A DNA stretch of 64,000 bases from Eledone cirrhosa. Lineage: Eukaryota. The translations under genes and the position numbers were made by a program. Shown here in pieces: positions 5,108 through 63,085 of this stretch (its first letter is position 1; each line of letters begins with the position of its first letter). The notes beneath the pieces are model-generated. The model was not told the DNA's origin. It did no database searches and was given only the letters and a program-made list of their open reading frames with translations. The stretch spans positions 31,186,001 through 31,250,000 of the forward strand of contig OZ024743.1 in NCBI GenBank assembly GCA_964016885.1, given 5' to 3'.

Positions 5108-5117
5108 AACCAGTAAG

Positions 5118-5211
5118 ACCCCGACGGTTGAGCTCGAGCCGTTTCGACGGCTAAATCTGGACTAAATGAAAATTTATCCTGGTATTTAAACAGCCGAGCT
5201 TCTCAAGGAGT
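5118..5211 (-). ncRNA. Hammerhead ribozyme, U3-A8 core variant, inverted-arm copy
   Basis: Minus strand reads ACTCC-TTGAGAA-...-GAAA-CGGCTCGAGCTCAACCG-TC^GGGGT; stem I ACTCC/GGGGT. Confidence 0.65.
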
Positions 5212-5570: not shown

Positions 5571-5605
<35 letters not shown>

Positions 5606-7135: not shown

Positions 7136-7877
7136 CACCCCAATTGCCGATTTTGTAATGGGTAACCCCTGCTTGCCAAGGGAGACGTAAGATCTTCTTT
7201 TATTCTTGTATCGCTTCCTCTATATTTCCTTCTTCCCCCATCCCTCCCTAGTCCTTCTACCCCAGTTCTTTTTTCTTTGTCGGCGTCTTTTTCTCGCCTA
7301 CCCGAGGCAGCTCCTCTGCCGCTTGTACGCTCAGTACCCCCACCCCCTCCCCTATTATATGATAGATTTGGTGGACACCGCTTTTTATAGCAGTTGTGTT
7401 AGACCTCCGATACTTGCCCCCTTATCCGACAGCTGCACCTTTTTTCCGTGCCTTCTATATTTCTTAGTGGCATCTTTGCTTTAATTTCTCGTTTATTCAG
7501 TATTTTTTTCTTCTCTTTGCTTTGGGGCGGGGGGGATTCTGATTTAATTTTCCGTATTTTACTTTTACTTCGTACGAACTTTCATGTAGCTTGTATAAGA
7601 ACTTTTGTAGCGTGGCGGTACCCTTAGAGTTAGCATTAGTATATTTTTTTCGGGACTCTGAATTAGTATTTCGTACTAGTTTACGTTTCTGCACTGGGTG
7701 GTTGCTGGCCTTGTGCCTGGGGTAGAAACCTTTATTAATTATTTCGTGGTAGTTTCTTTAGTATTTTGGGCCCCCCTTGTTGACCCGTCATCGTATGATA
7801 TACGTACTTATACCTCTTAAAAGGGTTCCTTCTTATACCGTCCCACCAAGTTTATTTATTTATTATTATTATTCTTT

Positions 7878-7926
<49 letters not shown>

Positions 7927-8291
7927 TTTTTTTTATTTTTTTTATTTCTTTGGCCTAGCAATAGCGAGAGACTTAGGTCGTAGAAACTGCTTATTTTTTT
8001 CTTTACATTTATTAGCTATCACTCTCAGTAATTTTTTTTTATTTATTTTAACCCTTCATTGTTCTACTTATCGCTTAGATTTACTCCCCCTCCCCTTCCC
8101 TAGTATCTTCTTTGACCTCACACCCAGCTGTAGCCGGCACTACCAACGCATGAATGGGTCTACTCCACCCCCTCCCCTTTTTCTCCTACTGGCAGATTTA
8201 GCTACTCCTTCCCCCACTAATCTGCCATCACAGAATTACAGCTAACTTGTGACCAATCCTTGTGACAATCACTTTGACCATATATGGAATT

Positions 8292-8385
8292 AACCCTTGA
8301 GAAGCTCGGCTGTTTAAATACCAGGATAAATTTTCATTTAGTTCAGAATTAGCCGTCGAAACGGCACGAGCTCAACCGTCGGAGT
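8292..8385 (+). ncRNA. Hammerhead ribozyme, U3-A8 core variant, in the PLE 3' region
   Basis: AACCC-TTGAGAA-stem II (CGGCT...AGCCG)-GAAA-CGG...CCG-TC^GGAGT. Confidence 0.65.
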
Positions 8386-8476
8386 CTTACTGGTTCCTAT
8401 TACCCATTCTACTACCCTAAGTATTGAGTACTTTGGTGCGTTATGGTCCACCTGGTTCCTTAACACATTTCCTTCG

Positions 8477-8525
<49 letters not shown>

Positions 8526-11454: not shown

Positions 11455-14400
11455 TATACGTGGTTTTGTCTTTGCGCGTAATTGTTCTCAATTGTTCTCT
11501 GGATGGGGAGGGGTAAGAGGGGTGGAGGAGGGATGGTGTGAGGATTCCAGAGGCTGAGTGTGTATAGGTAGGGGTACGCACGTGTGTGTTGGTGTTTATA
11601 CGTGTTGTGGATGTAGGTGGCGTGGTTCAAAAAACATTGTGAGTGTATCCCGTGGGTAAGTTCCTAAGGTAATTCGAGGAGTGGGCGATGAGGTGCCGGA
11701 TATTTTTCATGTTATGGAGTGGATAGCTGGAACGATGAGCGGTGGTGTGTAATTCCTGTCTGTGGTGGTCGGAAGTGGGGAGATGTGGGGTGCGGGCGCA
11801 GCAGGAAGTGTTCAGAGGGTCAAGGCAGGATGAAGGCAGAGCAGTAGAGGAGAATAACAGGTGGAGAAAGTCAGTGTGTGGTGAGGACTGTGCGTCTGTG
11901 TGTGGAGGTGCGTTGGACAGGGGAGAAGATGGGTAGGTGTGAAAGGTGGAGTTGGGAGGGGGTCATGTGAGGGATGGGGCATGTATTAGTAGAGGTGTTA
12001 GTGAGATGTGTGTGTGTGTGAAGGGGTGTGGGTGGAGCGGGAAGAGGGAGTGGGAGAGAAAAGCTATGGGATCGGTGGAGGGAGTGGAGTGTACTTATGT
12101 GTGTGTGCGTGTTTGGATGAGTTTGTTTGTTGTAAAGGGGGTGTTAGTGAGTGTTAGTATACGGGTCGTGGGGAAAGGGTTGAATGCGGGTGTGTTAGTG
12201 GGGGTTAGTGGTGGTTGGGGTGTAGAGTGGGTGGGGTTAGTGGTGGTATTAGTGCGTGTATATAGGTGGGTGTGTGCGTGATAGGGGGAGGGCTGGGGGT
12301 GTTAGTATTGTTAGTTGGGGGAGCGTGGACGGGGGTGGGGTGGGGGTGATAGTATTGTTAGCTACGGGGTGGGCCAAGAGGGCGGGCGGTGAAAAGGAGG
12401 AGTGTGTTAGTGGTGTTAGTGGGGGATATGTGTGTGTGTGTGTACGGGCAGGGCGGTTGAAGGCTAAAGGAATAGGGGTGGGGAGTTCAGGCCGGGGTGA
12501 GTGTGGGTCTGTAGGTTGAAGATGGTGTGTTGTTCTACCGTGAGGCGGGTGGCGGGTGTTCTTTGGCATTGGAGTAGGCCACAGACTGTGAGGTGGTGGG
12601 CGGAATTTTTAGGGGAGCCAAAGTTGCGAGCGTTGGGGGAACTCCGGCCGAGACGAATATCCCGGAGGTGTTCAGTGAAATGGTCAGCCAGGCGACGTCC
12701 AGTCTGTCCGACGTAGGTTGCGCTGCACTCCGTGCAGGAACTCAATAGACTAGGTTGGAGGAGGTGCAGCGGAAGGCGTGCCGGGTGAGAGAGAGTGGCT
12801 GTTGGGACCCTGGAAGGTGGTGGTGTTGTTGATGTGGGGGCAGGTGTAGCAACGAGGCCTGGAGTAGGGAGGTGAACCGGGGGTAAAGAGCGTGGGTTTA
12901 GGGGGCAGGGAGCTGCGGACGAGGAGGATACGGAGTTTGCGTGCGCGTTTGTAGGAGGGGAGAAGTGGGGCTGGGAATATGTAGGAGGTGGAGGGGTGGG
13001 ACTGGAGGGGGCGGAGGATGCGGAGGATGGAGCGGTGGAGGGGTAGGGTAGAGGGGTGGTAGTGGATGGGGAAGGGGAGACGGTGGGTGGGTATGCGGTG
13101 GCGTGGGGTGAGGGTGGTGGAGCGGTGGACAGCACGGGCGCGAGTGAGGGCGGTGTGGACGAGGGAGGGGGTAAGCTCTGCGAATGAAATGGCTGACTAG
13201 GAAAAGGGCCTGGGACTCAAAGTCAGCATCTCGGCTGCAAAGGCTGCGGATCCGGAGGAGTTGGGAGTAGGGATAGAGTGGTTTGTGTGTATGGGTGGGA
13301 GGAGGTGAAGTCGAAGTAGGAGTGGGAGGAGGTCGGTTTGAAGAAGGTGGAGGTGACGAGGGAACGGTGGGCGGTGTGGTGGCGACGGAGATGTCTAAGA
13401 ACTGGACGTGGGTGGTGGAGATAGAGGTGGTGAAGTGGTGCGAGGGGTGGAAGGAGCAGAAGAAGGAGAGAAAGGAGTCGAGCTGTTCGCGGGTGAGGGT
13501 CGTGGCTCCGATACTGTCGTCGATATAACGACTGTACAGTTCGGGCGTGGGGTCGCTGTACTGGGCAAAGATTTGGGCCTCAACATGGCCAACGAAAAGG
13601 TTGGCATAATTTGGGATCATTCTCTTGCCCATGGCTACCTCCGTGACCTGTTGGTAAAACTCACCCGAGAAGAAGAAGCAGTTGAAGGTGAGGACCAGCT
13701 CGGCGAGGCGAAGGAAGATGGAGGGTGTAGGTGATGGGGGAGGGGCCAAAATCGAGGTAGTGCCTGAGGGCACGTAGGCCGTCAGCGTGGGGGATGATAG
13801 TATAAAGCGACTTGATATCTAGGGTGAAGAGGAGGGCGTGTGAGACGCGTGGGAAAGTGAAGGAGTCGAACAGTCGAAGGGCGTGGTTGGTGTCGGAGAT
13901 GTGGGAGGGGAGGGTGGTGGCGAGGAGGGCGAGGATCGAGTAAATAATGGCGGTGATGAGTTCGCTGGGGCAGTTGCAAGTGGAGACGTTGGGGCGGCCG
14001 GGGTTGTCGGGTTTGTGGAGTTTGCAGAGTAAGTAGATAGTAGTGGTGCGGGGGTGCGGACGATGAGGTGGGAAGCGGTGGGAGGGAGGAGGCAACTTGT
14101 TGTTGGTAGAGGGGTGTGGTGTCAGAGGGTAGCGGGCGGTAGAACAGGCGGTTACGGACCTGCCTGAGGGCTTTTGCCGTGTAGCGGTCAGCGCGTCAAA
14201 CCCCCACGGCGCTTCCCTTGTCCGCCGGTTTGATGACGATGTCATCTCGGCTACGGAGAGAGCGGAGTGCGAGGAGTTCGCCCCGTGAGATGTTATGCCG
14301 TTTGGACCGGTGGCGGAAGTCGAAGCGATTTAATGCGCTACGGCAGGCGTCCACGAATGTGTCCAGGGTTTTAAATTGCTCTGGTACCGGCATCGAAGAC

Positions 14401-15653: not shown

Positions 15654-16245
15654 TTGGAATTGAACCATCAGCACTGTTGAGGTATGTCATGCATCAATTT
15701 ATATATTTTATCTGATGAGAACGTACTGAAAAAAACAGCACAGTACCTGCGAAATATACATAATCAAATATATTTTGATTACGTGAATGTCTATATTTAT
15801 TAATATTTTGAATTAATATATATATATATTATTGATAATAATAATTATTATTCATAATAATAATAAATATATATATATTATTCATAATAATAATAAATGA
15901 AGACATTCACATAATCAAAATATGTTTTATTATATTTATTTCGAAGGTGCTGTGCTGTTTTTCAGTACGTTCTCGTCAGATAAAATACATGAATCAACTG
16001 TCTTGATAGTTCAATTCCAGTATTGGCAATACTGCCTCAACTGTCTTCATAGTTCAATTCCAGTATTGGCAATGATGCCAATACTGGAATTGAACTATCA
16101 AGACAGTTGAGGTATGTCAGACATCAATTCATGTATTTTACCTGACGAGGACGTACTAACAAAACAGCACAGTCCCTTCGAAATAAATATAATAAAACAT
16201 ATATTTTGATTATGTGAATGTCTTCTTTTATTATTATTCTGAATA
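15654..16245. mobile_element. Three ~165-bp hammerhead-bearing PLE-pLTR-like repeats (+,-,+)
   Basis: Cores CTGATGA 15712/GAAA 15751 (+), CTGACGA 15979-15973/GAAA 15942-15939 (-), CTGACGA 16142/GAAA 16180 (+). Copies 2 and 3 form a palindrome centred near 16073. Confidence 0.65.
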
Positions 16246-20124: not shown

Positions 20125-23100
20125 AAAGGAAGACGGCGAGACCATCTGCACAATGGACTCAATCGACAACCGGATCAGTTCCACACGTGACAGCAACTGT
20201 TCGACATAGCTCCACAAGTCAGCAATGCTCCATCACTGAGCGAGTACGTGCAGAACGGTTTCGTCGCAATGCGCGCATCTCGGACAGGCTCGGCTGACGG
20301 CACTTCCGTGCCTGTAGAGCTTATCTTGAACCGGCAGCGCTCCCCGGTAGCACTGCCAGGCCGGGAATTTTCGGAAGTTATCCATAGGCCCCGGGCTGAA
20401 AATTCTCCGGAAGAGAGCAAGCAGCTGATCTTCTTCGACGCCCAGGATCTCTCCGAGAACGTCGTCGCTCTTCCCCTCCACTAGTCCTCTATAGAACGCC
20501 GAGATGGATGTTCCACCGATACTGGTGCCCAACTGGGAGAGGGCAGTGAGCGCCTGGAGACATTCCCAGCGCTATCCCTCCGTCTTTTTCTGATCCAGGA
20601 CTGCAGCTCCGTCAAGGAGACGAGCTGTGGGAAAATGTGCCTGGAGAACGGCGACCACACCCGTTCACCATCAAAGAAGCACCAGAGATGTCGCAGCCTC
20701 AGCGCATGTTTGGGCATCATCAGCCATGGCATGCCCAGTCCTCCACGCAACGGGTGTTGACAGCAGATGGATCGTCTGACCTTGGGAGCGCGTCCCTTCC
20801 ACAAAAAGCGGAAGAGGAGGCGCTTCATTTTGGTGAGAGTTGGGCTGAAGCAAAGGACGACGGTGAGGCGGTAGCAGATGACGGATGCGATGTACGCATT
20901 CGCCACTTCCGCCCGGCCTTTCAGGGACAGCTTCCTCTCAGCCTATTTCTGGGTGATGGAGGCCACCCTGCTCGTCACTTCGTTCCAGTTTTTCTCCATC
21001 TGGGAGTCCGGTCCGAACCAGACCCCGAGCAATTCAACCGGTCGGTCGGTCCAACGCCCCACGACGCTGTCGGACGGCATGGACTTGCCTCTCCAGGTGC
21101 TTAGCTGCAAGCCCACCGACTTTTCCTGGTTTATCTTTGCTCCTGTCACCGTTTTGTATTCCTTGAGAGCGGTGGCGAGCATCTGGACGTGTCTGGTGCT
21201 CGACACCACCACGGTGACGTCGTCAGCGTAAGCCGACTCGCATTCCCCCATCCTAGTTTGCGTGGGACGCCCCTCATCGCCCCCAGTTTCTGCAGTAACG
21301 GCTCGAGAGCCAATACGTACAAGAGGGACGAGAGGGGACAACCCTGGCGGACTGAGCGCATGATGCTGAACGGCTACGACAGGTGACCGTTCACCATCAC
21401 AACTGAGCAGATGTCACTGTACATTGCTGCGATCCAACGCCTGAAAACAGGCCCGAAACCGGATGCCTCGAGGACCGCCGCCAGGTACCGATGGTCGACC
21501 CTATCGAATGCTTTGGATTGATCCAAGTTGATCAGGGTCCCACCCATGCCAGGTTCCTTAACCACCCTCTCTATGATGTATCGCATGAGGTGGAGGTTTT
21601 CGTGTATGGATCTGTCCGGGATGGCGCATGTCTGCGCCTCTCCCACCAGACCCTTGACGACAAGCGCCAACCTCGATGCTAACACCTTGGTCAAAATCTT
21701 GAACTCTGCGTTTAGCAGGTTTATGGGCCTGAAATTATCAATAACATCCCCCTTGTTTGGGTCTTTTCTCAGCAGCGCTACTATAAATGCATGAAGCTCG
21801 TAGGGCAGACCATCCAAACCTGGCGATTTACCTCTTGTGCAGTTAGCCATCGCTTCCCGTATTTCACCGGCTGTTATTGGCTTTTCGCAACACTGTGCTG
21901 CGGTCGTCGAGAGCCGAGGCAGTCCGTCGAGATATGCACTGAAGTCCATATCCCGATCCGGGCTGCCGCCGCTGCCGAAAAGTTCAGCAACGTGCTGCTG
22001 AAAAGCTTCACACATCCGCTCTGGTTCGAGCATCACGCACCCGTTTTGTTCAGACAAAGACCGAATTGTGGCTTTATTGCCACGTCGCGCCTCTGCCACC
22101 CGGGCCCATTGGACGCTTTTGTCCTCTCGTATTTCAGAGCACGCGCTCTAGCTCTGACAACACAGCCTTCGTGTTTTGCGTTGAAGAATTGGTCGAGTGC
22201 CAATCTCGCCGCAAGCACGTCAGTTGCGATGCCTGTCCTAAACGCCTCTTCTAGCTTTCTGACTAACTCTCCCTCTACTCTATTTCCCTCTATCACTACT
22301 CCTTTGCTAAACCTAATCGACTCTACTTTAATTGCCCTTTTCAGGGCGAACCACCACCTGTTGTTGACGACCGCTCCCGTCAACGCCCGCTTAACTAATA
22401 CGCTAATCCGGTCTCTGTAGGCCTTGCGCGACGGGAAAGACGCGTTCAGCTTCCAGTAACCAGGCCCTTGTCTATGAAGTCTGTCTATGTCGATCTCACA
22501 GATCACAAATTTGTGGTCTATGTAGTCGACTATTTTAAAATGTGGACAACTTATACTAACCTTATCTAGTTCCCTGCAGAATACCCTATCTAGATACGAT
22601 CTGGATGACCCGATGCAGTTTGTCCATGTCCACATTGGCACATTCGGGTGATCCAGTCGATACCTGTCAGACCGTTCAACACGTCTGAGCAGGTTGGTGA
22701 GGCTCTTGCACCCTCCTCCCCTATCCACTAGCCCCACACGATCCCAGCGTGCATCCAAGATACCGTTCCAGTCGCCCACTAACACTAAAGAGCGGGACGT
22801 TCCATGAAAGGTCTCTAGACGTCTGAAGAAATCTGGCCGTCCTGCCCCTGTTGGGGCGTAGACGGCTACTAGCCTGAAAGCATTGCCTTCGCTGCCGATC
22901 ACGTCCAGCACCACCGACTTACTTTCTGGGTCCAGGAAGATGGCCCGTATCGCGAGATCCAAGCCTCTCCGAAAAAGGACGGCAACCCCTCCCTCCGATC
23001 CTGGACGGCTGGGAGATGCGTATACATCGTAGCCGCCGAAGATCGGTGCGAAGGCCCGTGTCTCGGAGATTCTGGTTTCACTGATGGCCACCACATCTAT

Positions 23101-23193
23101 GTTTAGTGACCTGAGATCATTGAGCAGGTGACCCTGCTTCCAAGATGACCCCAGGTCACGTGCATTTATACTGCCTATTCTGAGTACAGCCAT
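20125..23193 (-). pseudogene. LINE A ORF2 (APE endonuclease-RT), frameshifted
   Basis: ORF pieces 22033-23229, 21374-22099, 21146-21361, 20943-21341, 20481-20906, 20233-20532. Confidence 0.88.
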
Positions 23194-23225
23194 GTTGGAT
23201 GAGAAACGGGGCAACTGAGAAAGGA

Positions 23226-25207
23226 TCACTTACATCGTTCGTGTGGTGAAGGGACAGTAGAGCCGTCCTTTTCGCTGGTCATGGGTGTTTCCAAGAGGAT
23301 GTCAGTGTATATCCTCTTGGTAACAGTTCCTCTGAACTCTCCAACTGCGTTGGTGAATTTTGGTTTTAAAGTTTTGTACTGTTCTAATGAGATTTCGATG
23401 ATGCTTATGTTTGTCGGGAGAGTTCTTGGTGTCGGTGGGGTGTAGTAATGTTTTTCCGTGATGTCTGTGTGCTGCTTTATATATTTTATGAGTTCTTTTT
23501 TTGCTATGTTTATGGCTGTGTACTTTTTGGGGGGCGTGGTGATTTTGTTGCGGTTTTCTTCTTGTTGCTGTTTGGTGTGTGTGTCTTGTTGTGTTTGCGT
23601 TGTTGGTGTTTGTGGTTGTGTTGCTGCAAGTTTCCTTGCTGCCTTTACCCCTCTTTGTATGCCTTCGCTTTTGGAGGGTGAATCTAAGGGTTTTTTTGTT
23701 TTTGTTTTTTGTTTTTTGTTGCAGACTGTTTGCTTCGTCACTCCCGCCTCAAACTCCATGTCGGATTCTGTGGCGTCTGGGAGGGGTATGTGCTCCACGA
23801 CTGTGGGTGGTGGTAGTGGAACCCTCTTTGTTGTTGGTGTAGCCATTGGTGTTGCCGCTACTGATGATGCTGCTGTATTTATCCGTGGCCTTGGTACGGG
23901 TGCTACGGACGTTGCCCTCCTACTCACCGTGGAAGGGGCTTCTTCGTTTGTTGCCTGTCCTGCTCTTGGTAGCAGCGGACCAGGTACTGGAAGGAGAGGG
24001 TCCCCCTTCGGTGTCTTCTGCGGGAAAAAGGCCCTGAGGTGACCTTTCGACCCACAGAGATAACATTTTGGCCGTCTTCCTTCTACACTTATAGGGAGTT
24101 GGAGTCCTTCCTCAAAGTCTATGATATAGGGGATAACCTCGATACATTCCTGGTCAGTTTGTATAAGCATGTGCATGCCTATACCTGACCAGCCAAGGTA
24201 GGGCACGTCGGGTGGGACCTGGGTCACTTTGACCCTCACAATTTTCTGCCCATAGTAGGAGGGCACCAAGACTAACTCCTCACTATTTACGGTTTCCAAA
24301 GAGTGAGACTTTGCTTCCTGGGGGGTGGCGAAAAGTATGTCTACTGTGGCGTACTTTCTGCCTCGGGTGATGTGGGATTTGCGTGCCCAGAGGCACCCCG
24401 AGGCCTTTTGGATTTGAGCCTCCGTGGCTCTCTCCACTCGATGTGAGATTTTTCTTACGGTGCGGTAAGTCACCGTTCGTAGCTGCTGGTCCTTGAAAAA
24501 ATCGGGTGGAGGTTTCAGGGAAACTCTATTTGCGCTTCTTGTCACCATGGCCCTTGCGACTGCCATCTCCTCCTCTGTGACTAACACTGTCTCGATATTT
24601 AGGGCAACACATGCAAAAGAAGTGGTCTCTTTTTCAGCAGCTCCACTATTGCTGCCGCTACTGGTCTTACTGGTGGTGTTGAGGTCCCTATTACAGGTAT
24701 CGGTGTCATTGTTGTTATTTTCGCTGGTACAGTTGTTGGTGTTGTTTTCGTTGATACTGTTGCTGATGTTACTGTTATTGTGGCTGTTGTTATTATTGTT
24801 GTTTTTATTGATAGTTTCCTACTATTATTGTTGTTGTGGCTGTTGTTATTGTCATTGTTATTGTCGTTCTCGACCTTACCGCTGTTATTTTTGTTATTGT
24901 CGTTCTCGACCTTACCGCTGTTATTTTTGTTATTGTCGTTCTCGACCTTACCGCTGTTAATTTTGTTATTGTCGTTCTCGACTTCACCGCTGTTATTTTT
25001 GGTGTTGTTGTTGGTGATGTTGTTGGTCTTATTGTTGGTGTTGTTTGTGTTAGAAATATTTGTTAAATCTGTAACAATCTTTTTTCCCTTTGTAATATTT
25101 TCGTTTATATTTACCTCCGCTGGAACGCTGTCTTGTTGACATGCTGATAAAGTTTCCCTCTCTCTGTGTTGTCTGACAGCGCTCTCTCTCATTTTTGTGT
25201 TATCCAT
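23226..25207 (-). pseudogene. LINE A ORF1 (gag-like; Asn/Thr-rich N-terminus, CCHC-like knuckle), frameshift near 24590
   Basis: ORFs 24599-25207 and 23226-24587; CYLCGSKGHLRAFF; homologous to ORF1 of copy B. Confidence 0.8.
24858..25000. repeat. 36-bp coding minisatellite x4 inside LINE A ORF1 (NNSGKVENDNNK)
   Basis: TTGTCGTTCTCGAC recurs at 24861, 24897, 24933 and 24969. Confidence 0.9.
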
Positions 25208-25422
25208 GTTGAAATTTTTCCAAAAATATTTTTACATAAATACGAATACGACACCCCGTAAAGGGGTGCCGTATTATTTACTAGTGAACCCTTGTATTAG
25301 GTGGGTCACTTCTTCTAAACTTTTATCAAATTTAAAACTTGAATAAAAGGTTTAGAACGGTTGAAAAAGGGGTAAAACGTTGAAAAATACTGGAGGCGAT
25401 AAGATGCGTGGCTTCACCAACC

Positions 25423-25457
<35 letters not shown>

Positions 25458-25473
25458 CAATGATAATAATAAT
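25423..25473. repeat. (AAT)n tract between LINE A 5' end and LINE B 3' end
   Basis: Direct reading. Confidence 0.95.
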
Positions 25474-25724
25474 GATTTCTTTATTAACCACACGGGTTTA
25501 CATAAAGTAGACATTAAGGACAGTGAAAGACAATACAGGATGGTACAAATGGGCATTTCTGCGTGTAAAGAACAAAGACAGAGGTAGTAACAAAAAAATA
25601 ACAATGAAAAATTCCCCAATAGGGGGGAGACTTCGGAGGGAGATTTGTGGAGAAAGCCCAGTAAAAGGCCACAGTGACCCTGACCACCAAGGCAAGTGCC
25701 CTCTCCCAGCTTTCCACCTTTAAT

Positions 25725-28700
25725 TTACAGATACGTACTCAGAGTAGGCCTATTCACTCGGGCCATTCTTGCTTCTCTCACCCATCTTTCAACAAAATGC
25801 TGGGAAGAGAGCACTTCCCTCTCTACCCTGATTTCCCTTTTCAAATGAAATTTGAAAAAGTTGATCAGGGCATCACCGAAGAGGTAAGTGCTCGTCTTCA
25901 GCCCTTTCAAACGTGTCCACCATACTATCTCTTTCGCCATGGCCACCAGACAGATAGAAACTGCCTGCCCTTCCCGGCTAAAGGAAGAGGGCGAGGCAAT
26001 CCTCACGATGGACTCAGATGATAGCCGGATCCGTCCTACACGCGACAGCAGGTGTTCGACATAAACCCAAAAGTCAGCAATTTTCGGACACTGGACGAGT
26101 GCGTGCAAGACGGTTTCGTCGCCCTGCGCGCATCTCGGACATGCCCGGCTGACGGCACCTCCATGCCTGTAGAGTTTATCCCGAACTGGCAAGGCTCCTC
26201 GGTAGCACTGCCAGGCCAGAGATTTCTGGAAGTTGTCCATAGGCCCCGGCCCGAAAGTTCTTCCGAAGAGATTCGCTAGTTGTTTTTCGTCGACGCCTAG
26301 AGTTGCCCCAAGTACGTCGTCGCTCTTCCCCTCCACTAATCCTCTATAGAACACCGAGGTGGAGTTTCCACCGATCACATTCCCGATTGGTCGAGGGCTG
26401 TGAGCGCCTGAAGACATTCCAGTCTCAAAGCGCTCCCTCTCGGTCTTCGCTTGACCCAGGACTGCAGCTCCGTCAAGGAAACGAGCTGGGAAAATTCGTG
26501 TCAAGCAAACGGCGACCACACCTGATCACCGTAGAGGAAGAGGTGGAGATGTCGTAGCCTGAGCGCGTGTCTGCGCATCATCAGCCACGGCATTCCCAGC
26601 CCTCCATGTAGCGGGTGTTGACAGCAGATGGACCGCCTGACCATCAAAGCGCGTCCCTTCCACAAAAAGCGAAAGAGAAAACGCTCCAGCGCTGTCAGGC
26701 GGGGCTTAGGACAAGGTACGACGGTCAGGCGGTAGCAGATGACTGACGCGATGTACGCGTTAGCCACCTCCGCTCGACTTTTCAGGGATAGCTTCCACTC
26801 CGCCCATTTCACCTCGTCCCAATTTTTGTCCGTCTGGAGGTCCGGACCGAACCAGACCCCTATCAATTTAACCGTCCGTCCGTCCAGCGTCCGACGACGC
26901 TGTTGGACGGTGCTGAGCTGCATGCCCACTGACTTTTCCTGGTTGATCATTGCTCCTGTCACCGCTTCGTATTCTCTTAGTGTAGTGCCGATCGCCTCGA
27001 TGTGTTTGGCGTTCGACACCACTACGGTGACATCGTCCGCATATGCTGACACGGATCATCCGCATCCTAGTTCGCTCGGGACGACCCTCAACGTCTCCAG
27101 TTTGTGTAGTAATGGCTCGAGAGTAAATACGTACAAGAGGGACGAGATGGGACATCCTTGGCGGACCGAGCGCATGATGTTGAACGGTTCCGAAAGGTGA
27201 CCGTTCACTCTCACCACAGAGCAGATGTCGCTGTGCATGGCAGCGATCCAGCCTCTGAAGACGGGCCCAAAGCCAGCCGCCCTCATGACTGCCGCTAGGT
27301 AAAGATGGTCGACCCTATCGAAAGCTTTCGACTGATCTAAATTGATCAAGGACCCACCCGTGCCAGGTTCGCTAGCTACCCTCTCTACGATGTATCGCAT
27401 GAGTTGGAGGTTGTCGTGGATGGATCTGTCGGGAATGGCGCATGTCTGCGCCTCTCCCACCAGACCACCAACGACAAGCGCCAACCTCTTTGCTAGCACC
27501 TTGGCCAAAATCTTGAACTCTGTGTTTAGCAGAGTTATGGGCGGAAATTATCTATGTTATCCCCCTTGTTCGGATCCTTTCTCAGCAGTGCCACCGCTCC
27601 TCGGCTCACAGAACTGGGAATTCTCCCGTTCTGTTGCCAGTTGCAGTAGACGTCCGTCAAGAGGCCTCCGAACAAGTCTGGCATCTGTACATTAAAGTTC
27701 ATAGGGCAAACCATCCAAACCAGGCGATTTACCCCTTGTGCAGCCAGTCATTGCCTCCCTTACGTCAGCGGCTGTTATCGGCTTTTCGCAACACTCCGCC
27801 TCAGTGGCCGAAAGCCGCGGCAGTCCGTCGAGGTAGACACTAAAGTCAATCCCTCGACCCGGCCCACCCCTGCCCCCAAACAGCTGAGGGAAGTGTCGCT
27901 GAAAAGCTTCACACATTTGCCCGGGATCGAGTAGCATGCGCCCGTCATGGTCTACCAAAGACCGGATCGTGGATTTGTACCCACGACGCGCCTCCGCCAC
28001 TCGGGCCCATTGAACGGCTTTCGTCCCCTCGTGGCTGAGAGCACGCACCCTAGCTCTGACAATGCAGCCTTCGTGCTTTGCATTGAAGAATTTGTCAAGG
28101 GCCAAGTTCGCCGCAAGCACGTCGGTCGCAATGCCTTTGCTAAGCGCCTCGACTAATTTTCTAACTAGTTCTCCCTCTGCTCTATTTTTCTCTATTGCTA
28201 AAGCCTTACTAAACCTAATCGATTCTATTCTAATCGCTCTTTTCAGAGCAAACCACCACTTGTTGTTGACGATGGCCCCCGTCAACGCCCGCTTAACTAG
28301 TTCGCTAATCCGGTCTCTGTAGGTCTTGCGCGCTGGTAAGGACGCGTTTAGCTTACAGTAGCCGGGTCCTCGTCTATGAAGCCTATCTAAGTCAAGCACA
28401 CAGATCACGAATTTGTGGTCCGTGTAGCTGACTATCTTGAATTATGGACAGCCTATGCTAGACCTATCTATTTCCCTACAAAATACTCTATCTAGATATG
28501 ATCTGGATGACCCTATGCGATTTGTCCAAGTCCACATTGGCACATTCGGGAAATCCAATCGGTACCTGTCAGACAGTTCAAAACGCCTGAGCAGGTTGAT
28601 GAGGCTCTTTCACCCTCCACCCCTATCCGCTAATCCCACAGAGTCCCAGCGTGCATCTAAGATCCCGTTCCAGTCGCCCACTAACACTAAAGAGCGGGAC

Positions 28701-29093
28701 GTTCGAAGAAAGGTCTCCAGACGCCGGAAGAAATCAGGCCGCCCTGCTCCTGTGGGGGCATAGACGGCCACTAGCCTGAAAGCTTGCCCGTTTCCGCTGG
28801 TCACGTCCAGCACCACCAACTTACCCTCTGGGTCCAGGAAGATGGCCCGTATGGCGAGATCCAAACCTCTCCGAAAAAGCACAGCAACTCCTCCCCCCGA
28901 TCCAGGACGGCTGGGAGATACGTACACTCGTAGCCGCCGAAGATCGGTACGAAGGCCCGTGCTTCGGAGATCTGGTCTCGCTGATGGCCACTACATCTAT
29001 GTTTAGTGACTTTAGGTCGTTGAGCAGGTGACCCTGCTTCCATGACGACCCCAAGCCACGCGCATTTATGCTGCCTATTCTGAGTGAGGTCAT
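25725..29093 (-). pseudogene. LINE B ORF2 (APE-RT-CCHC), frameshifted
   Basis: MTSLRIGSINARGLG, LVGDWNGILD, GKSPGLDGLPYE, LDQSKAFDRVDH, SAYADDV, CPRCAQGDETVLHALVQC. Confidence 0.88.
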
Positions 29094-29128
29094 GTTTAAA
29101 ATAGAGTGGAAAAGATGGGAAAGACCAC

Positions 29129-31274
29129 TTACCGTACTTTTGGTAGAGGAGGGATGGTTTTTACATCCCTTTTCACTTGATCGTCTGGTGAAGGGACCGT
29201 TGAATCGTCCCTTCGGCTGGTCGTCGGCTCTTCTAAGAGAATGTCTGAATATACTCTTCGATTGATAGTTCCTCCTAGGTCCCTGAAATCACCAACTGCG
29301 TTGGGGAATTTCATTTTAATGTTTGTGTATTGTTTTTCTGCTATTTTTAGCAGTCTTATGTTAGTTGGCGTTTTGATTGGTGCTGGTATTATGTAGTCGT
29401 GTTGTGAAATGTCTGTGTGTTCAATTTTGTAAGTCATCAGTTTCTTGTTGTGTGTATTTATTGCCGTGCATTTGTTTTTCTGGGGGTGGGGTGGGGTTGT
29501 GCTATTTTCTTGTCGTTGTTGCTGGGTGTGTGTGTTTTGTTGTTGTGTTTGCGATGTTGGTGCTTGTGCTGGTGGTGTTTAAGGTGTTGTTGTTGTTGGC
29601 GGTGGGGTTGTCGCCGGAGGTGATGGTGGTGCTAGTGTGGGTGGTGATGGTGTTGGTGGTGTTGCTGCTGTGAGTCTATTTGCAGTAGCCTTTACCTTTT
29701 TTTCATTTCTTTCCTCCCTTTTCGAAGGCGACGATGCGCTGCTTCTGCGTTTGTGGTTTCTTACGACCTTTTGCCATCCCTCTCCTACCTCACACTCCAT
29801 GTCTGATTCTCTGAGGTCGGGGAGGTGTAACAGCTCCACTCTTTCACTTGTTGTTGTTGGTGATGTTTGCACTGGAGTCTCTGTTGCAGCTGCATTTGGT
29901 ATTACTGTTGTTGTTGTTAATACTTCCACTGCTGCTGCTGTTTTTGATTTCCCTGGCGTGGATATGGGTGCCACGGACCTATCGTTCCTTGTTGCCGCTT
30001 GTCCTGTTGCTGATAGCCGTGGAGCCGGTTTCGGAAAGAGGGAGGTTTTCTCATTTCACAGGGTCTTCTCGTTGTAGAAAGCCCTGAGGTGAGTCTTCGA
30101 TCCACAGCGAAAGCATTTCGGGCATTTTCCCTCAACACTTATGGGCATTTGAGTGCCGTTATCGAAGTCTATCACATCCGCGATAGATTCGATGCACTCC
30201 TAGTTGGTTTGGATTAACATCTCAATGGAGGTGCCGACCCAATCTTCTCTTACTTTTTTTCTGTACTTGCAGTACAGTTTTTTGTCTTCGATTCCGACGA
30301 GGACAGACGCGGCCAGCCAAGAAGGGACCATCCCGGGTGGGGGGACGTGGGTCAGTTTGACCCTCACAATTTTTTCCCCGCAGTAGGAGGGCACCAAGAC
30401 CATTTCCTCGCTCCTTAGGGTCACTAAGGATTGAGCCTTTGCCTCCTGTGGTGTGGCAAAAAGCACGTCTACGGTGGCATATTTCTTGCCTCGGGTGATG
30501 TGTGTTTTCCGCTGCCACACAGACCCTAAGGCTTTTTGTATTTGAGCCTTTGTGGCTCTTTCAACCCTACGGGATTGTGTGCTTAATGTACGGTATGTGA
30601 CTTTACAGTGCTGTTGGGTTTCGAAAAATATTTCGCCTGCCTTGCAGATTGCTCGGTGTCCGGTTTTCGTCACCATCTTCTTCGCTTCCTCTAATTCCTC
30701 ATTTGTTATGAGGATGGTTTCCAGGTTCTTTGCGATACCTGCAAACGAGATTGGTTTTTCTTTGCTGCTGTTGTTGTTGTTGTTGTCGTCAGAGCTGCTG
30801 TTACTTTTGTTGTTGCTGCAGGTACTACGACTACTGCCGCCGCAGCTGTTGCTGTGGTTGTTGTTGTTGTTGCTGATGCTGCTGTTGTTGTTGCTGCTAA
30901 TGCTGTTGTTGTTTATGCTGCTGTTGATGTTGTTGCGGCTGCTACTGTTGTTTTCCTTGTCACTGTTGCTGCTGCTGCTGCTGCTGTTATTACGGCTGCT
31001 ACTGCTATTATTCCTGACGTCAGATGAATGAAATGGGTTTTCGTATTTCCCGCACACCTTTTTCGTCGTTGTCGTCGTCGTCGTGTAGAAATCTTGCTCG
31101 CTTTTGCACGTGATTTTTCTTTTCTGGCGTTGCTTGCGAAAGAGAAGGGAGGGAGAGAGACACATTTAGAGAAGGGAGGGAGAGAGAAAATCTTCTCTCT
31201 GCTGTAGTGACGATTGAGGAAGAAGAAGACGGAATGAGTGGGAGTGACCTATGAAAATTATTTTTCGTAGCCAT
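29129..31274 (-). pseudogene. LINE B ORF1 (gag-like; Asn/Ser microsatellite-encoded N-terminus)
   Basis: ORF pieces 31020-31307, 30200-31165, 29579-29974, 29129-29437; shares RVERATxAQIQKA..HITRGxKYATVD with copy A. Confidence 0.8.
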
Positions 31275-38460: not shown

Positions 38461-39017
<557 letters not shown>

Positions 39018-39163: not shown

Positions 39164-41198
39164 CGTATGTGTGTGTGTCTGTGTGTGCCTGCGTGTGTAT
39201 ACGTAATCACTAATACCATAACAGATTTAAATTATATGCTTATGCTTCCGCGTTGTATAATCGAACAAGGGCCTATTTCAATGAAGTTAAAATCATTGCC
39301 CCCTCAGACCCAAGGAATCAAGTTCATACTCGTAATTGTATTGCATGCAGACTGATCAATATTAATTCGCAACAACATAAAACCAAGCATCATCATCGTT
39401 ATATTCATCATCACTATCATCGCCATCATCATCATTAACATCATCATCGTCATCATTGTATCATCATCAACATCACCATCATCTCACTCATATTTCCCCC
39501 ACACATAATTCCTTAAAATAGTACTAAACATCATCGTCTTTAGTAACACCACCCTCTTCTTACACATCATCACTACCTCTGAATGTACCATCCTTTTTCT
39601 TTCCTTTCCATGGCTTCGCTATTACCATAACAATAACTGAAATAATATCGATAACAACTGCAGTAACTTCTGTAACATATATAGGCCTGATAGTGATTCC
39701 ATTTAATAACCAGTTTCGACTGTTTCATTGGAATGTTTAATAAATATCGAATCAGTTTCAGTGTACGCAGCGACATTACCAGATGTGGTTTGTAAAGTGT
39801 GATGCAATATACAGTTCAATCTATAGATACGTACAGGAATGTTTTAGTTTTCAGCTCTTTCTCTAATTTTAATTAAACTCTTATTTTATTAAGATAATTT
39901 TCTTAGGATACATTTCGGAAGAAAAAGTGCTGTTTCGTTTCTGAATTAATCAAGAATAATAATATGGGTGAGATTCAGTGCAAAATGTTGATGACACATA
40001 TGACAACTTAAATGTACAAATAGCAATGTTCTATTTCGTTATAAGAAAAAAAAAATGAAAATGTTAATTTAAAATTAATTGCTTCTGCAATTACGAAAAT
40101 ATCATTATGCCCCTAAATTGTAATGGAAAAAGTTTAATGCAGAAACTTTGAATTTTATGCAAAGAATACATGATATATGTATTCTAGTATATGACCCATT
40201 TTTTCACAAAAAGTTAACGTGATATTTTTTATTGAATAATAACTATTATATCCAGAAGAATTAATTTATAGAATAGTGACATAATTTGGAACAGAAAATA
40301 TTCGTGAAATAAAACGAAATGCGTAGTCCCTATATTTTAATAGAGAGAAAATAGATGTACGTTTCAACAATCTGTAATTCAAGCAATCTCTATACTGATT
40401 ACATGTTTGTAGATATTCTAATTCATATCATTGTGGTGCCTGTGACGTTCTATTGATTTAATAATTCGACTTTGAATTGCAAATATCTTTAGCTTAAAAC
40501 TATTTCCAACTCTATTGTCAATAAGACACAGTTTACCATGATGTAGAGTGATAAATATAAAGTTTCGATAAGCGCTGCAATTGCCATGACGAATATACTT
40601 CATAACAAGGAATCTACAACTTAACGTAAAAAGCAGGTATGTATCTGAAGCTTGCAAACTACGCCCTGCATTAACGCCAACATCTTTCTTTCATTTCTCA
40701 GTGTTATTTACAAATATCACTGTATAATGTCTACGGTTTCAACAACTACTAGTTTTCACAGTGTTCATACTAATTCGCAAATTCATTTTATACTTTGAAC
40801 AATATTTTAATGTGTATGAAATTTTGCGACATTCAGCCGCAATTTGCAGTTGAATATATATCTAGGAAAATATGTATATAAATAGACACGTTAAACTCCT
40901 AAACATATAAAATGCTCGTATTTACTTGGAAATTGGAAAGCAAATTAGGAATTCTCTTAAACTATATATACATAAACAATTAAGTTAAAAATGTACATCC
41001 ACATATGTATACTGAAATACTAGTATGCATATGAATACACACACGTGTACATATGTAGATGTACCGAGTTTTTCACTGGACACTTTACTGTGAGTGTCCA
41101 GCTATTCTGTATGTAAACACACAGACAAACCGGTTTTTAGAGTCATACTGGTTTTCGAGGAAACACCTTTCCTCTATTCTCCAGAAAGCCAGACAAGG

Positions 41199-41243
41199 AA
41201 TATTGGACTAGTTTCGATGTTGTTACATCTCATCAGCAATATT
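41199..41243 (-). ncRNA. Type I hammerhead ribozyme
   Basis: Reverse complement of AATATTG-CTGATGA-GATG TAACAA CATC-GAAA-CTAG-TC^CAATATT. Confidence 0.9.
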
Positions 41244-41664
41244 TACCTATCTTCCGCCCTTTCTAGAGAATCGTAAAAGCACATATCGTTATATGCTTTT
41301 TCTATGAAAATTAGTAGTGGGCAGACTAATTTGCATAGAGCGTGAGTACGTACCGGTTCAGCGGAGACGATAAAAACAAATAACGAAACGAAATTAAATT
41401 TCGTTTCGTTTGTAACTCACTTTTGTATGACTGACGCTTAAACAATTAAGTTAAAAATGTACATCCACATATGTATACTGAAATACTAGTATGCATATGA
41501 ATACACACACGTGTACATATGTAGATGTACCGAGTTTTTCACTGGACACTTTACTGTGAGTGTCCAGCTATTCTGTATGTAAACACACAGACAAACCGGT
41601 TTTTAGAGTCATACTGGTTTTCGAGGAAACACCTTTCCTCTATTCTCCAGAAAGCCAGACAAGG

Positions 41665-41709
41665 AATATTGGACTAGTTTCGATGTTGTTACATCTCATC
41701 AGCAATATT
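41665..41709 (-). ncRNA. Type I hammerhead ribozyme
   Basis: Identical copy, 466 bp downstream. Confidence 0.9.
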
Positions 41710-42130
41710 TACCTATCTTCCGCCCTTTCTAGAGAATCGTAAAAGCACATATCGTTATATGCTTTTTCTATGAAAATTAGTAGTGGGCAGACTAATTTGC
41801 ATAGAGCGTGAGTACGTACCGGTTCAGCGGAGACGATAAAAACAAATAACGAAACGAAATTAAATTTCGTTTCGTTTGTAACTCACTTTTGTATGACTGA
41901 CGCTTAAACAATTAAGTTAAAAATGTACATCCACATATGTATACTGAAATACTAGTATGCATATGAATACACACACGTGTACATATGTAGATGTACCGAG
42001 TTTTTCACTGGACACTTTACTGTGAGTGTCCAGCTATTCTGTATGTAAACACACAGACAAACCGGTTTTTAGAGTCATACTGGTTTTCGAGGAAACACCT
42101 TTCCTCTATTCTCCAGAAAGCCAGACAAGG

Positions 42131-42175
42131 AATATTGGACTAGTTTCGATGTTGTTACATCTCATCAGCAATATT
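42131..42175 (-). ncRNA. Type I hammerhead ribozyme
   Basis: Identical copy. Confidence 0.9.
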
Positions 42176-42596
42176 TACCTATCTTCCGCCCTTTCTAGAG
42201 AATCGTAAAAGCACATATCGTTATATGCTTTTTCTATGAAAATTAGTAGTGGGCAGACTAATTTGCATAGAGCGTGAGTACGTACCGGTTCAGCGGAGAC
42301 GATAAAAACAAATAACGAAACGAAATTAAATTTCGTTTCGTTTGTAACTCACTTTTGTATGACTGACGCTTAAACAATTAAGTTAAAAATGTACATCCAC
42401 ATATGTATACTGAAATACTAGTATGCATATGAATACACACACGTGTACATATGTAGATGTACCGAGTTTTTCACTGGACACTTTACTGTGAGTGTCCAGC
42501 TATTCTGTATGTAAACACACAGACAAACCGGTTTTTAGAGTCATACTGGTTTTCGAGGAAACACCTTTCCTCTATTCTCCAGAAAGCCAGACAAGG

Positions 42597-42641
42597 AATA
42601 TTGGACTAGTTTCGATGTTGTTACATCTCATCAGCAATATT
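42597..42641 (-). ncRNA. Type I hammerhead ribozyme
   Basis: Identical copy. Confidence 0.9.
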
Positions 42642-43135
42642 TACCTATCTTCCGCCCTTTCTAGAGAATCGTAAAAGCACATATCGTTATATGCTTTTTC
42701 TATGAAAATTAGTAGTGGGCAGACTAATTTGCATAGAGCGTGAGTACGTACCGGTTCAGCGGAGACGATAAAAACAAATAACGAAACGAAATTAAATTTC
42801 GTTTCGTTTGTAACTCACTTTTGTATGACTGACGCTTAAACAATTAAGTTAAAAATGTACATCCACATATGTATACTGAAATACTAGTATGCATATGAAT
42901 ACACACACGTGTACATATGTAGGTGTCCAGTGAAAAACTCGGTACATCTACATATGTACACGTGTGTGTATTCATATGCATACTAGTATTTCAGTATACA
43001 TATGTGGATGTACATTTTTAACTTAATTGTTTAAGCGTCAGTCATACAAAAGTGAGTTACAAACGAAACGAAATTTAATTTCGTTTCGTTATTTGTTTTT
43101 ATCGTCTCCGCTGAACCGGTACGTACTCACGCTCT

Positions 43136-43143
43136 ATGCAAAT
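43136..43143 (+). promoter_or_regulatory. Octamer ATGCAAAT in each full 466-bp unit (also 43602, 44068, 44547 on +; 41329, 41795, 42261, 42727 on -)
   Basis: Exact octamer ~90 bp upstream of the hammerhead, conserved in the diverged unit at 184; function inferred. Confidence 0.5.
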
Positions 43144-43228
43144 TAGTCTGCCCACTACTAATTTTCATAGAAAAAGCATATAACGATATGTGCTTTTACG
43201 ATTCTCTAGAAAGGGCGGAAGATAGGTA

Positions 43229-43273
43229 AATATTGCTGATGAGATGTAACAACATCGAAACTAGTCCAATATT
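43229..43273 (+). ncRNA. Type I hammerhead ribozyme
   Basis: Stem I AATATTG/CAATATT; CTGATGA 43236-43242; stem II GATG/CATC with loop TAACAA; GAAA 43257-43260; minimal stem III with palindromic ACTAGT; GUC cleavage after 43266. Confidence 0.92.
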
Positions 43274-43694
43274 CCTTGTCTGGCTTTCTGGAGAATAGAG
43301 GAAAGGTGTTTCCTCGAAAACCAGTATGACTCTAAAAACCGGTTTGTCTGTGTGTTTACATACAGAATAGCTGGACACTCACAGTAAAGTGTCCAGTGAA
43401 AAACTCGGTACATCTACATATGTACACGTGTGTGTATTCATATGCATACTAGTATTTCAGTATACATATGTGGATGTACATTTTTAACTTAATTGTTTAA
43501 GCGTCAGTCATACAAAAGTGAGTTACAAACGAAACGAAATTTAATTTCGTTTCGTTATTTGTTTTTATCGTCTCCGCTGAACCGGTACGTACTCACGCTC
43601 TATGCAAATTAGTCTGCCCACTACTAATTTTCATAGAAAAAGCATATAACGATATGTGCTTTTACGATTCTCTAGAAAGGGCGGAAGATAGGTA

Positions 43695-43739
43695 AATATT
43701 GCTGATGAGATGTAACAACATCGAAACTAGTCCAATATT
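43695..43739 (+). ncRNA. Type I hammerhead ribozyme
   Basis: Identical copy. Confidence 0.9.
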
Positions 43740-44160
43740 CCTTGTCTGGCTTTCTGGAGAATAGAGGAAAGGTGTTTCCTCGAAAACCAGTATGACTCTA
43801 AAAACCGGTTTGTCTGTGTGTTTACATACAGAATAGCTGGACACTCACAGTAAAGTGTCCAGTGAAAAACTCGGTACATCTACATATGTACACGTGTGTG
43901 TATTCATATGCATACTAGTATTTCAGTATACATATGTGGATGTACATTTTTAACTTAATTGTTTAAGCGTCAGTCATACAAAAGTGAGTTACAAACGAAA
44001 CGAAATTTAATTTCGTTTCGTTATTTGTTTTTATCGTCTCCGCTGAACCGGTACGTACTCACGCTCTATGCAAATTAGTCTGCCCACTACTAATTTTCAT
44101 AGAAAAAGCATATAACGATATGTGCTTTTACGATTCTCTAGAAAGGGCGGAAGATAGGTA

Positions 44161-44205
44161 AATATTGCTGATGAGATGTAACAACATCGAAACTAGTCCA
44201 ATATT
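44161..44205 (+). ncRNA. Type I hammerhead ribozyme
   Basis: Identical copy. Confidence 0.9.
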
Positions 44206-44639
44206 CCTTGTCTGGCTTTCTGGAGAATAGAGGAAAGGTGTTTCCTCGAAAACCAGTATGACTCTAAAAACCGGTTTGTCTGTGTGTTTACATACAGAAT
44301 AGCTGGACACTCACAGTAAAGTGTCCAGTGAAAAACTCGGTACATCTACATATGTACACGTGTGTGTATTCATATGCATACTAGTATTTCAGTATACATA
44401 TGTGGATGTACATTTTTAACTTAATTTTTTAACTTAATTGTTTAAGCGTCAGTCATACAAAAGTGAGTTACAAACGAAACGAAATTTAATTTCGTTTCGT
44501 TATTTGTTTTTATCGTCTCCGCTGAACCGGTACGTACTCACGCTCTATGCAAATTAGTCTGCCCACTACTAATTTTCATAGAAAAAGCATATAACGATAT
44601 GTGCTTTTACGATTCTCTAGAAAGGGCGGAAGATAGGTA

Positions 44640-44684
44640 AATATTGCTGATGAGATGTAACAACATCGAAACTAGTCCAATATT
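44640..44684 (+). ncRNA. Type I hammerhead ribozyme
   Basis: Identical copy; spacing is 479 bp because of the 13-bp duplication. Confidence 0.9.
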
Positions 44685-45045
44685 CCTTGTCTGGCTTTCT
44701 GGAGAATAGAGGAAAGGTGTTTCCTCGAAAACCAGTATGACTCTAAAAACCGGTTTGTCTGTGTGTTTACATACAGAATAGCTGGACACTCACAGTAAAG
44801 TGTCCAGTGAAAAACTCGGTACATCTACATATGTACACGTGTGTGTATTCATATGCATACTAGTATTTCAGTATACATATGTGGATGTACATTTTTAACT
44901 TAATTGTTTAAGCGTCAGTCATACAAAAGTGAGTTACAAACGAAACGAAATTTAATTTCGTTTCGTTATTTGTTTTTATATATACATATATATATATATA
45001 TATACATATACACACCCACACACACACACACACACCCACACACAC

Positions 45046-47186: not shown

Positions 47187-47266
47187 CAGGACTAGAACTG
47201 TTTCATTCGTGAAACATCGTCAGGGCTTCTTGACGATTTCTCACGAATGAAACAGTTCTAGTGCTG
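47187..47266. repeat. Small inverted pair of degenerate hammerhead-like cores
   Basis: ACTAGAACTGTTTCATTCGTGA..ATCGTCA pairs with TGACGAT..TCACGAATGAAACAGTTCTAGT. Minus strand CTGACGA..GAAAC..GTC; stem I is lost at the centre. Confidence 0.55.
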
Positions 47267-61959: not shown

Positions 61960-62480
61960 TCAAATTGTCTGTGTCCTGGTGACGCAATTAATATCAGTAG
62001 AATCAAGTGAAAAACTGTGTATGAACTCTTTGTCAACCTGGCCGCGTCAGTCAGTTTTGTAGGGTTTCTCCCTCGTGTTGCTGAAAGGCTAAACGATTGA
62101 AAGCGCTTTTTGTTGATATTAGGTATGTGTGATATTATTGTTTCCATAGTTTGCGTGAATATCGGACCTATCTGTCCCAGGCCTAGAAGGTGAGTTTGGT
62201 TAGAACCGCCATTGTATTTGTGTTATAGCCGTGAAGAACGGTTTAAAGATAGTAGCAAAATATTAGGCCAGATTGATAATATTGTAGGTTGTTGCAATAT
62301 ATGCCACCTCTCTCAGAGGCGTGATGAGAGGAGCAAGATCTGTGGCAGTATGTCTAGAAGCCTTCATTTGTTGCTGGGAATTGTATACCCTTGGTGACCA
62401 AGCCTCCATATGAAACACGATGGCATATCATTGTACAGAATTGATTGTATGTAAAACGTACGGTTGAGTGAAAGAGACTG
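61960..62480 (-). mobile_element. Possible CR1/L2 LINE 3' fragment
   Basis: Frameshifted LLPL..ERWHI..YNIINL and FQSFSL segments resemble CR1/L2 ORF2 C-termini; weak. Confidence 0.3.
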
Positions 62481-63085
62481 AAGACTACGGACAAAGAAAG
62501 GCAGCGAACATCGAGAGGAGAGTTGGTAGCGTTTCTGCAATTCGGAATTGGTGTATGTGTTGGGGATTGTGTGTTTTTGTTTTACCTATAACGTGCAATA
62601 CTTGAAGCGATATCTTACACTGCATTCTACAGTTGTTCGGTTTATTTAGACGTGTTTTCCTCTTGAAATCTGCTGGTAGTCCGGAGTTAATTAACATGGT
62701 TATTACAATTCTATAACAACATGTGTTGATTGAATTCCTCTTTCTGATATAGCCACAAAGGTAATTATGCGTAGATACAAACAGATGTGCACACGTACAC
62801 ACATTCACAGACACTTGCACACATACGCTCTCTCTCTCTTTCCCTCGCACACACAAAATAGTGTGTATATGTGGCTAACTCTTCGATTAAATTAATGGAA
62901 CTGTTCTATGTGTGAGTGCAGGTGATTTTTCGCTTTTAATCTAATAACGTTTCTGAACGAAGGCAATACTTATATAATTATATCATTATGTAATAATTGT
63001 ATAATTTGTGTCCGTCTTGTGGAGGGTATTGTTTGTGATATTGCTTTCGCATAATATATGACCTATATATATTTATATATACATA

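Follow-up and report, generated by a model that had tools for sequence, protein, structure and literature searches.

Paired fixed 3' ends in a two-armed hammerhead retrozyme family of Eledone cirrhosa point to priming from both target strands

In the present study, we analyzed a 64,000-nt stretch of Eledone cirrhosa DNA (assembly GCA_964016885.1, contig OZ024743.1, positions 31,186,001 to 31,250,000 of the forward strand; hereafter, the window) and found that the tandem array at 40963-44988 is a young two-armed insertion of a hammerhead retrozyme without long terminal repeats (non-LTR), which is a known kind of element. The mechanism that we favor, at somewhat better than even probability, is that a borrowed Penelope-type reverse transcriptase (RT)/GIY-YIG enzyme made the array, with each of the two target strands serving as a primer on a single RNA that was probably a monomer circle. 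This reading draws on sequence comparison, namely on the fixed 3' ends, the presence of one of each kind per insertion, the scattered 5' ends, and the footprint shared with an autonomous Penelope-like element (PLE) family.

The array consists of a 466-nt unit in two head-to-head arms spanning 40973-44979, without any substitution between units, and is purely tandem in build, with no LTR. Unit positions were numbered from the predicted hammerhead cleavage site, and the features are as follows.

40963-40974, plus strand: left copy of the 12-bp duplication, TATATATACATA, the last 2 nt shared with the unit
40973-42922, minus strand: untailed arm of 1950 nt (4.18 units), running from unit position 148 (5' end) to 233 (3' end, site B)
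41206-41236, 41672-41702, 42138-42168 and 42604-42634, minus strand: predicted minimal type I hammerhead cores of the left arm, from a motif scan
42922-42923, no strand: head-to-head junction of both 5' ends; 3/4 following bases are compatible with either arm
42923-44979, plus strand: tailed arm of 2057 nt (4.41 units with the 13-nt duplication counted), with the 5' end at 123 and the 3' end at 302 (site A)
43215, plus strand: G at unit position 415, present in all eight units covering the position, on both arms
43236-43266, 43702-43732, 44168-44198 and 44647-44677, plus strand: predicted minimal type I hammerhead cores of the right arm, from a motif scan
44413-44445, plus strand: 13-nt tandem duplication at the internal site B, right arm only
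44911-44979, plus strand: the 69 nt that separate site B from site A (the 'tail'), at one end only, containing a 13-bp hairpin that ends 12 nt before site A
44977-44988, plus strand: right copy of the 12-bp duplication, TATATATACATA, the first 3 nt shared with the unit; it begins a (TA)n/(CA)n microsatellite

The motif scan thus returned eight cores, four per arm and one per unit, and their orientation places the ribozyme-sense 3' ends outward on both arms; an Rfam search found no hammerhead in the array at the gathering score. Folding of the unit compared with shuffled sequences gave a z of -9.2 for the sense strand and -7.5 for the antisense strand, and there were no open frames of at least 120 aa within 40963-44988. 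A preliminary description of the locus had claimed outward 3' ends with unlike stops, neither at the cleavage site, arms of ~4.2 and ~4.4 units, and a 12-bp flanking repeat overlapping the unit ends by 2-3 nt; each of these claims agreed with the measured values, the overlaps being 2 and 3 nt. The 13-14 nt duplication at site B was also observed at an unrelated locus (L059), and it is possibly RT slippage at the point where the other cDNA starts.

The family was observed as dispersed, mobile copies, with 1633 exact matches to the core and 1982 A-end junctions in its own genome. End points were tabulated in two sets of loci, of which set 1 comprised 60 loci, including the window locus, chosen by unit similarity or core, and set 2 comprised 78 independent loci chosen for an A or B junction. 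Two rows, L101 (the same as L100) and L175 (taken next to a locus other than the intended one), were left out, and overlapping stretches were merged; the end classes in set 1 were defined as unit position 296-302 for A and 215-234 for B. All 36 set 1 loci that had two arms and were complete at both sites carried one A end and one B end (36/36), the other five of the 41 two-arm loci being either cut off (two) or provided with a short rearranged second arm (three). When the loci that had been cut off were extended, another three A+B insertions were recovered (39/39). Among the 19 one-arm loci of set 1, one was among these three later A+B insertions, three had a B arm of 13-14 nt, and one was a long array with both ends cut off; the 14 truly single-arm loci ended at A (eight), at B (five), or elsewhere (one). 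For set 2, the partner end was of the opposite class in 54 loci (nine as arms of 7-14 nt), of the same class in one, absent in 13, of another kind in four, and cut off in six, resulting in A+B in 54/55 loci with a partner of class A or B. Overall, no A+A and one B+B locus were found among 94 scored, and of 11 complete two-arm insertions at loci picked last for their variants, nine were A+B and two had one end elsewhere.

The exact 3' ends in 81 A+B loci were also narrowly placed, A at 302 in 73/81 and B at 228, 230, or 233 in 74/81. The preliminary description had supposed arbitrary end points, and this was contradicted by the tabulated copies, in which the 3' termini are fixed and only the 5' ends are arbitrary. 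Because all three B positions were found within one haplotype, they arise anew, and because, in addition, site A is only one of the 14 TAT sites in the unit, the start sites look as if chosen by protein rather than by pairing or inheritance. The 5' ends were compatible with a uniform spread, and those close to the cleavage site were not enriched (9/221 versus 9.5 expected). Arm lengths varied freely, from <20 nt to ~30 units, paired arms being weakly correlated in length in set 1 (rho 0.38, p 0.02) and uncorrelated in set 2 (rho -0.02). At five loci (L004, L024, L025, L032, and L038), the tailed arms were 582-586 nt long and all ended at unit position 183-187, within a hairpin, on the second lap.

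The target-site duplication was evaluated at the window locus and at the family level. As the preliminary description had cautioned, the window's 12-mer is of low complexity: TATATATACATA is present 16 times on the plus strand of the window, and the left flank yields such a repeat with 4/80 unrelated right flanks (chance pairs, 4/80 and 1/80), for which reason it is weak evidence alone. The family-level duplication is masked because most A+B loci (68/81) are inserted in (TA)n. Under a stricter test, which was devised after the result of a looser one and required the TA register to break outside the element, a repeat was found in 8/81 true flank pairs versus 28/6480 mismatched pairs, all of 12-13 nt. 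Judged from these flank pairs, the family as a whole does have a target duplication of 12-13 bp, a length with which the 12-mer of the window agrees. At the non-microsatellite targets of L010 and L031, the duplication was present and no (TA)n tail was added; no such tail was added at L162, another non-microsatellite target, either. An empty allele was not seen, the contigs of the best-matching sample ending at 40974 without a second allele and four other runs missing the flank.

With respect to the enzyme, we compared the array with a PLE that lies outside it in the window.

5103-8480, no strand: 5'-truncated Penelope-like insertion, head-to-head, in (TA)n, with the untailed end at 5103 and an 80-nt tail at 8401-8480

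The arms of this PLE are 92% identical, the right arm being 80 nt longer at the 3' end, and the RT part is missing; it is an older, truncated copy, and its family has open frames of 788-791 codons that are ~99% alike. The structure model of the family's open reading frame (ORF) had a pLDDT of 92.7 and was closest in fold to telomerase RT (TERT; E ~1e-8), whereas Pfam and PDB sequence searches gave no match; the predicted product is a telomerase-like RT with a C-terminal GIY-YIG domain, the latter recognized from Atlas neighbors and by motif reading. The 3' ends of the family were located at two sites 80 nt apart in 70/76 cases (overlapping stretches may double-count a few), and a tailed end was paired with an untailed end in 16/16 short inverted pairs and in 6/10 full-length loci, the other four not being assignable from the stretch examined. 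A second PLE family of the genome has a tail of 75-78 nt. The retrozyme unit likewise exhibited features expected of a PLE-mobilized element, namely two fixed 3' ends, an inverted 5'-truncated copy, and an AT-rich or microsatellite target. Mobilization of the unit by a PLE-class enzyme is, on this comparison of footprints (one tailed and one untailed end, (TA)n target), well supported at the level of class and not of family. The preliminary description had ascribed the same geometry to the PLE (as 5103-8478) and had named PLE RT/GIY-YIG as the mobilizing enzyme. The former stood with respect to the head-to-head layout, the one-tailed rule, and (TA)n, although the PLE and the unit have no sequence in common; the latter stood for the enzyme class only, the window copy being without the RT part and its family not being matched to the unit.

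Two candidates for a more direct connection were set aside. L013 looked like a PLE-retrozyme chimera made in one event, but it was not used as evidence because of the unequal divergence of its parts, the retrozyme part resembling the young unit at 99.6% and the PLE part being 3.5-4.5% from its nearest relatives. Between site B and the 3' untranslated region of a PLE, a match of 22 nt (L183, E 0.014) was dropped because of its position in a T-rich tract. As separate observations on the PLEs, the PLE repeat at 8293-8385 (plus strand), with a mirror near 5125-5215, and loci L061-L070 had a hammerhead-like fold with the core TTGAGAA, in which U3/A8 replace C3/G8 and which was overlooked by the usual motif scan. 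A hammerhead with a U3-A8 swap for C3-G8 can work. Many PLE minis of ~200 bp, which flank L015, L027, L036, L044, L055, L062, L064, L080, L084, L113, L117, and others, were found to have both 5' ends stopping near window 8336-8353, in contrast to those of the retrozyme, which are scattered; the cause is perhaps a strong stop or a short RNA.

According to the mechanism that we favor, tandem transcripts would self-cleave and then be ligated into circles, and the enzyme, likely a dimer, would cut (TA)n with a stagger of ~12 nt. One target 3' OH would then start internally at site 302 and the other at 228-233, each reverse transcription would run about four laps while displacing its earlier cDNA, and the cDNAs would end at random before being joined with an overlap of 0-5 nt. 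Priming from both target strands, which the preliminary description had also suggested, is supported by the strict A+B pairing, by the 12-13 bp duplication, and by the presence of one haplotype on both arms: the median divergence between arms was 0.44% at the same locus (n=71) and 3.9% between different loci (n=5628), and arms >3% apart were found at 1/71 loci versus 60% of unrelated pairs.

A circular RNA as the template at the window locus is, from the distribution of sequence variants, rather probable, being indicated by a variant that is specific to the locus and present in every unit, by arms that are long and uniform, and by two-unit alternation. Position 415 was C in the other 92/94 arms of set 1 and G at the window locus. 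The 11 matches to 415G in the assembly comprised the eight in the array and three in two loci of other haplotypes, which have 4 and 12 fixed differences from the window unit and carry G in some units only; a second array with the haplotype of the window locus was not found in the assembly. That this haplotype was not met elsewhere in the assembly favors laps on a circle without proving a circle. Other young arrays were likewise long and uniform over both arms, the identical monomers numbering 18/18, 14/16, 11/12, and 26/34, and arrays with 0-2 singletons were 14-20 units long. In 6/8 loci, unit-limited variants were located in corresponding laps of the two arms. Two-unit alternation, the pattern that a dimer circle would give, was found on a single arm at each of L021, L023, and L158. 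Copying of a circular RNA, as proposed in the preliminary description, is therefore likely on these grounds, and its own argument from arbitrary ends did not hold. Separately, self-closing contigs across the unit junction were observed in runs X4, X7, and X8 (other organisms' labels), with 495-496 nt in X4 and X8, which fits tandem DNA or a circle.

Several results weigh against the favored mechanism, and most of them concern the template. With respect to pairing and target, L153 carried two B ends, the loose first duplication test gave 10/36 versus 18-19%, which was not significant (this test was swamped by TA runs), and only 8/16 testable loci showed the duplication in the stricter one. No sequence was shared between the unit and PLEs, including pLTR homology to an autonomous PLE, in the three families examined. 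A PLE protein in vitro preferred unprocessed RNA and started alike on both strands (PMC11167929), and 8/9 retrozyme dimers did not cleave in another study, a preprint (bioRxiv 10.64898/2026.07.22.740005). As regards the variants, 85C and 386C, which had looked private, had 33 and 190 matches, and a donor array with 415G may be absent from the assembly. Unit-limited variants lay in unlike laps in L088 and L130 and agreed in only 3/5 laps in L023, while L040 and L009 call for templates of unlike units. Finally, the long arrays L002, L014, L015, L042, and L050 had repeated blocks that look like later duplication, because of which units are not always laps.

Beside the circle, the alternative template is an uncleaved linear multimer, that is, a transcript of an existing tandem array copied by the same enzyme from the same two start sites. 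This is unlikely in our estimation, but it is in line with unprocessed RNA being the main in vitro substrate and with the ordered unlike units of L040 and L009 just described. Minimal hammerheads are, in addition, poor at cleavage as monomers (PMC7761336), and possible donor arrays of 10-30 units are present. Against a linear template are the lack of another array found with the window haplotype, an arm of at least 20 units, and the long uniform arrays with their own haplotypes among the sampled loci, which need a circle or fast homogenization at some generation.

Dual priming, in which two RNAs of one source, one per strand, would be held so that one uses A and the other B, is improbable. It would suit the overlap of the arms in sequence, unlike L1 twin priming, and the laps of L088, L130, and late L023 that are out of step, whereas the near absence of same-class pairs among the 94 scored loci and the rarity of arms >3% apart argue against it. 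Still less probable is a short two-armed insertion that was later expanded by tandem duplication of DNA; the repeated blocks in several long arrays and a satellite-like array of ~40 units in the genome are in line with such expansion, but it would require growth of both inverted arms, and it is opposed by the window units without substitutions and by the 14-20-unit arrays with 0-2 singletons. Fold-back, in which one cDNA copies itself by self-priming as proposed for head-to-head PLEs (PMC3846280), is very improbable: the 5' ends in the window are 21-25 nt apart with a weak hairpin at the cDNA end (-1.8 kcal/mol), and offsets were <10 nt in 4/45 loci, but the centre offsets elsewhere matched a uniform spread (KS p 0.86, n=41; p 0.20, n=45), which disfavors it as a general route, the untailed arm was longer than the tailed one in 18/36 and 17/45 loci, and the 13-nt duplication is confined to one arm. 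Equally remote is an RT of a long interspersed nuclear element (LINE) acting through a (UA)n 3' tail that is inherited and pairs with the target, the fixed end being copied from a donor, since, despite the LINE-like RT frames seen by eye in the window and the frequent (TA)n targets, targets other than (TA)n gain no tail, site B varies within a haplotype, and the two-end rule is that of PLE families.

The comparison with known systems covered portions of the published retrozyme, PLE, and L1 papers, to which the following statements refer. Retrozymes themselves, their proposed mobilization by PLEs, and the two start sites of PLEs are already published. Retrozyme circles have been demonstrated in coral, mussel, and axolotl, with PLE copying proposed (PMC7229834 and PMC7761336), and retrozymes have been described as non-autonomous PLE derivatives (bioRxiv 10.64898/2026.07.22.740005). 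The present family resembles metazoan non-LTR retrozymes in its tandem unit, which is non-coding and a few hundred nt long, the type I hammerhead in each unit, the strong fold, the duplication of >4 bp, and the presence of PLEs in the same genome. Copying of the circle into tandem cDNA by PLEs was proposed in those papers, where the circles were detected by northern blot (PMC7229834), whereas this family is known from DNA alone; the inverted two-arm insertions and fixed paired ends are a feature of this family and are absent from the retrozyme descriptions compared.

A PLE protein has been reported to start at two internal RNA sites, the distance between them being the tail, and to cut and extend both strands, with a dimer predicted (PMC11167929). 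PLEs are also described as having an inverted copy and a tail often at one end, the head-to-head layout being explained by self-priming (PMC8557442 and PMC3846280), a reading with which the centre offsets found here do not fit. The retrozyme shares with PLEs the head-to-head 5'-truncated copy, the tail at one end, the two internal start sites, and the (TA)n bias, and it differs from them in having no ORF in its unit. The duplication is a variable 8-10 bp in rotifer PLE copies and 12-13 bp in the retrozyme here, and the tail is 69-74 nt in the retrozyme, 75-80 nt in the PLEs of this genome, and 30-40 nt in published PLEs, in the compared accounts of which it is optional or often at one end, whereas it is almost strictly at one end here. 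Twin and dual priming have been described for L1 (PMC2837659). The likeness to L1 twin priming lies in the priming by both target strands, the inverted arms within a duplication, and the short central overlap. In L1, however, twin priming is a variant that starts at poly(A), has an internal second site that is free, and yields arms without overlap, none of which was found in the retrozyme insertions; here, two-strand priming would be the main route, the two internal sites are both fixed, and the overlap of the arms extends over several units. Neither a strict pairing of one site per strand nor a twin-priming reading of PLEs or retrozymes was found in the literature searched, which was mostly without subscription papers and excluded supplements (PMC11167929 Figs S1-S2 and PMC7229834 Fig S9) that may bear on this.

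The papers compared leave open by what steps PLEs complete their integration and whether the circles of animal retrozymes really are templates, and the family offers a countable rule of one start site per strand with a stagger of ~12 nt. Tentatively, and at slightly less than even probability, Penelope-type integration could by default engage both strands with a single RNA, a dimer giving each strand one fixed internal start, and each reverse transcription could run 20 or more laps on a small ribozyme circle (>9 kb of cDNA). Such a default reaction, if true, would explain why the tail is one-sided and why the layout is head-to-head. The pairing rule makes the PLE mechanism directly testable, the in vitro PLE assay that already exists could take the retrozyme unit as a small, defined substrate, and the family suggests a route from ribozyme circles to satellite-like arrays.

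Some minor observations were also made. Arrays resembling satellites, with unit numbers from 25 to ~40 or more and in some cases with higher-order patterns, were noted at L050, L074, and L075 (G000:C1 ~95.644-95.664 Mb), at L134 with L173, and at L137 with L079. L160-L165 and L168-L172 form a young subfamily with units of 467-468 nt and unusually long arms (7-20 units). Other loose hammerhead-like cores in the window (269-299, 15712-16189, 38803-38845, 47196-47223, and 62478-62512) probably represent other families or chance. Judged by eye from their frames, two decayed tandem LINE-like elements and another broken RT-like element lie at 20481-30055 and 12464-14329 (minus strand).

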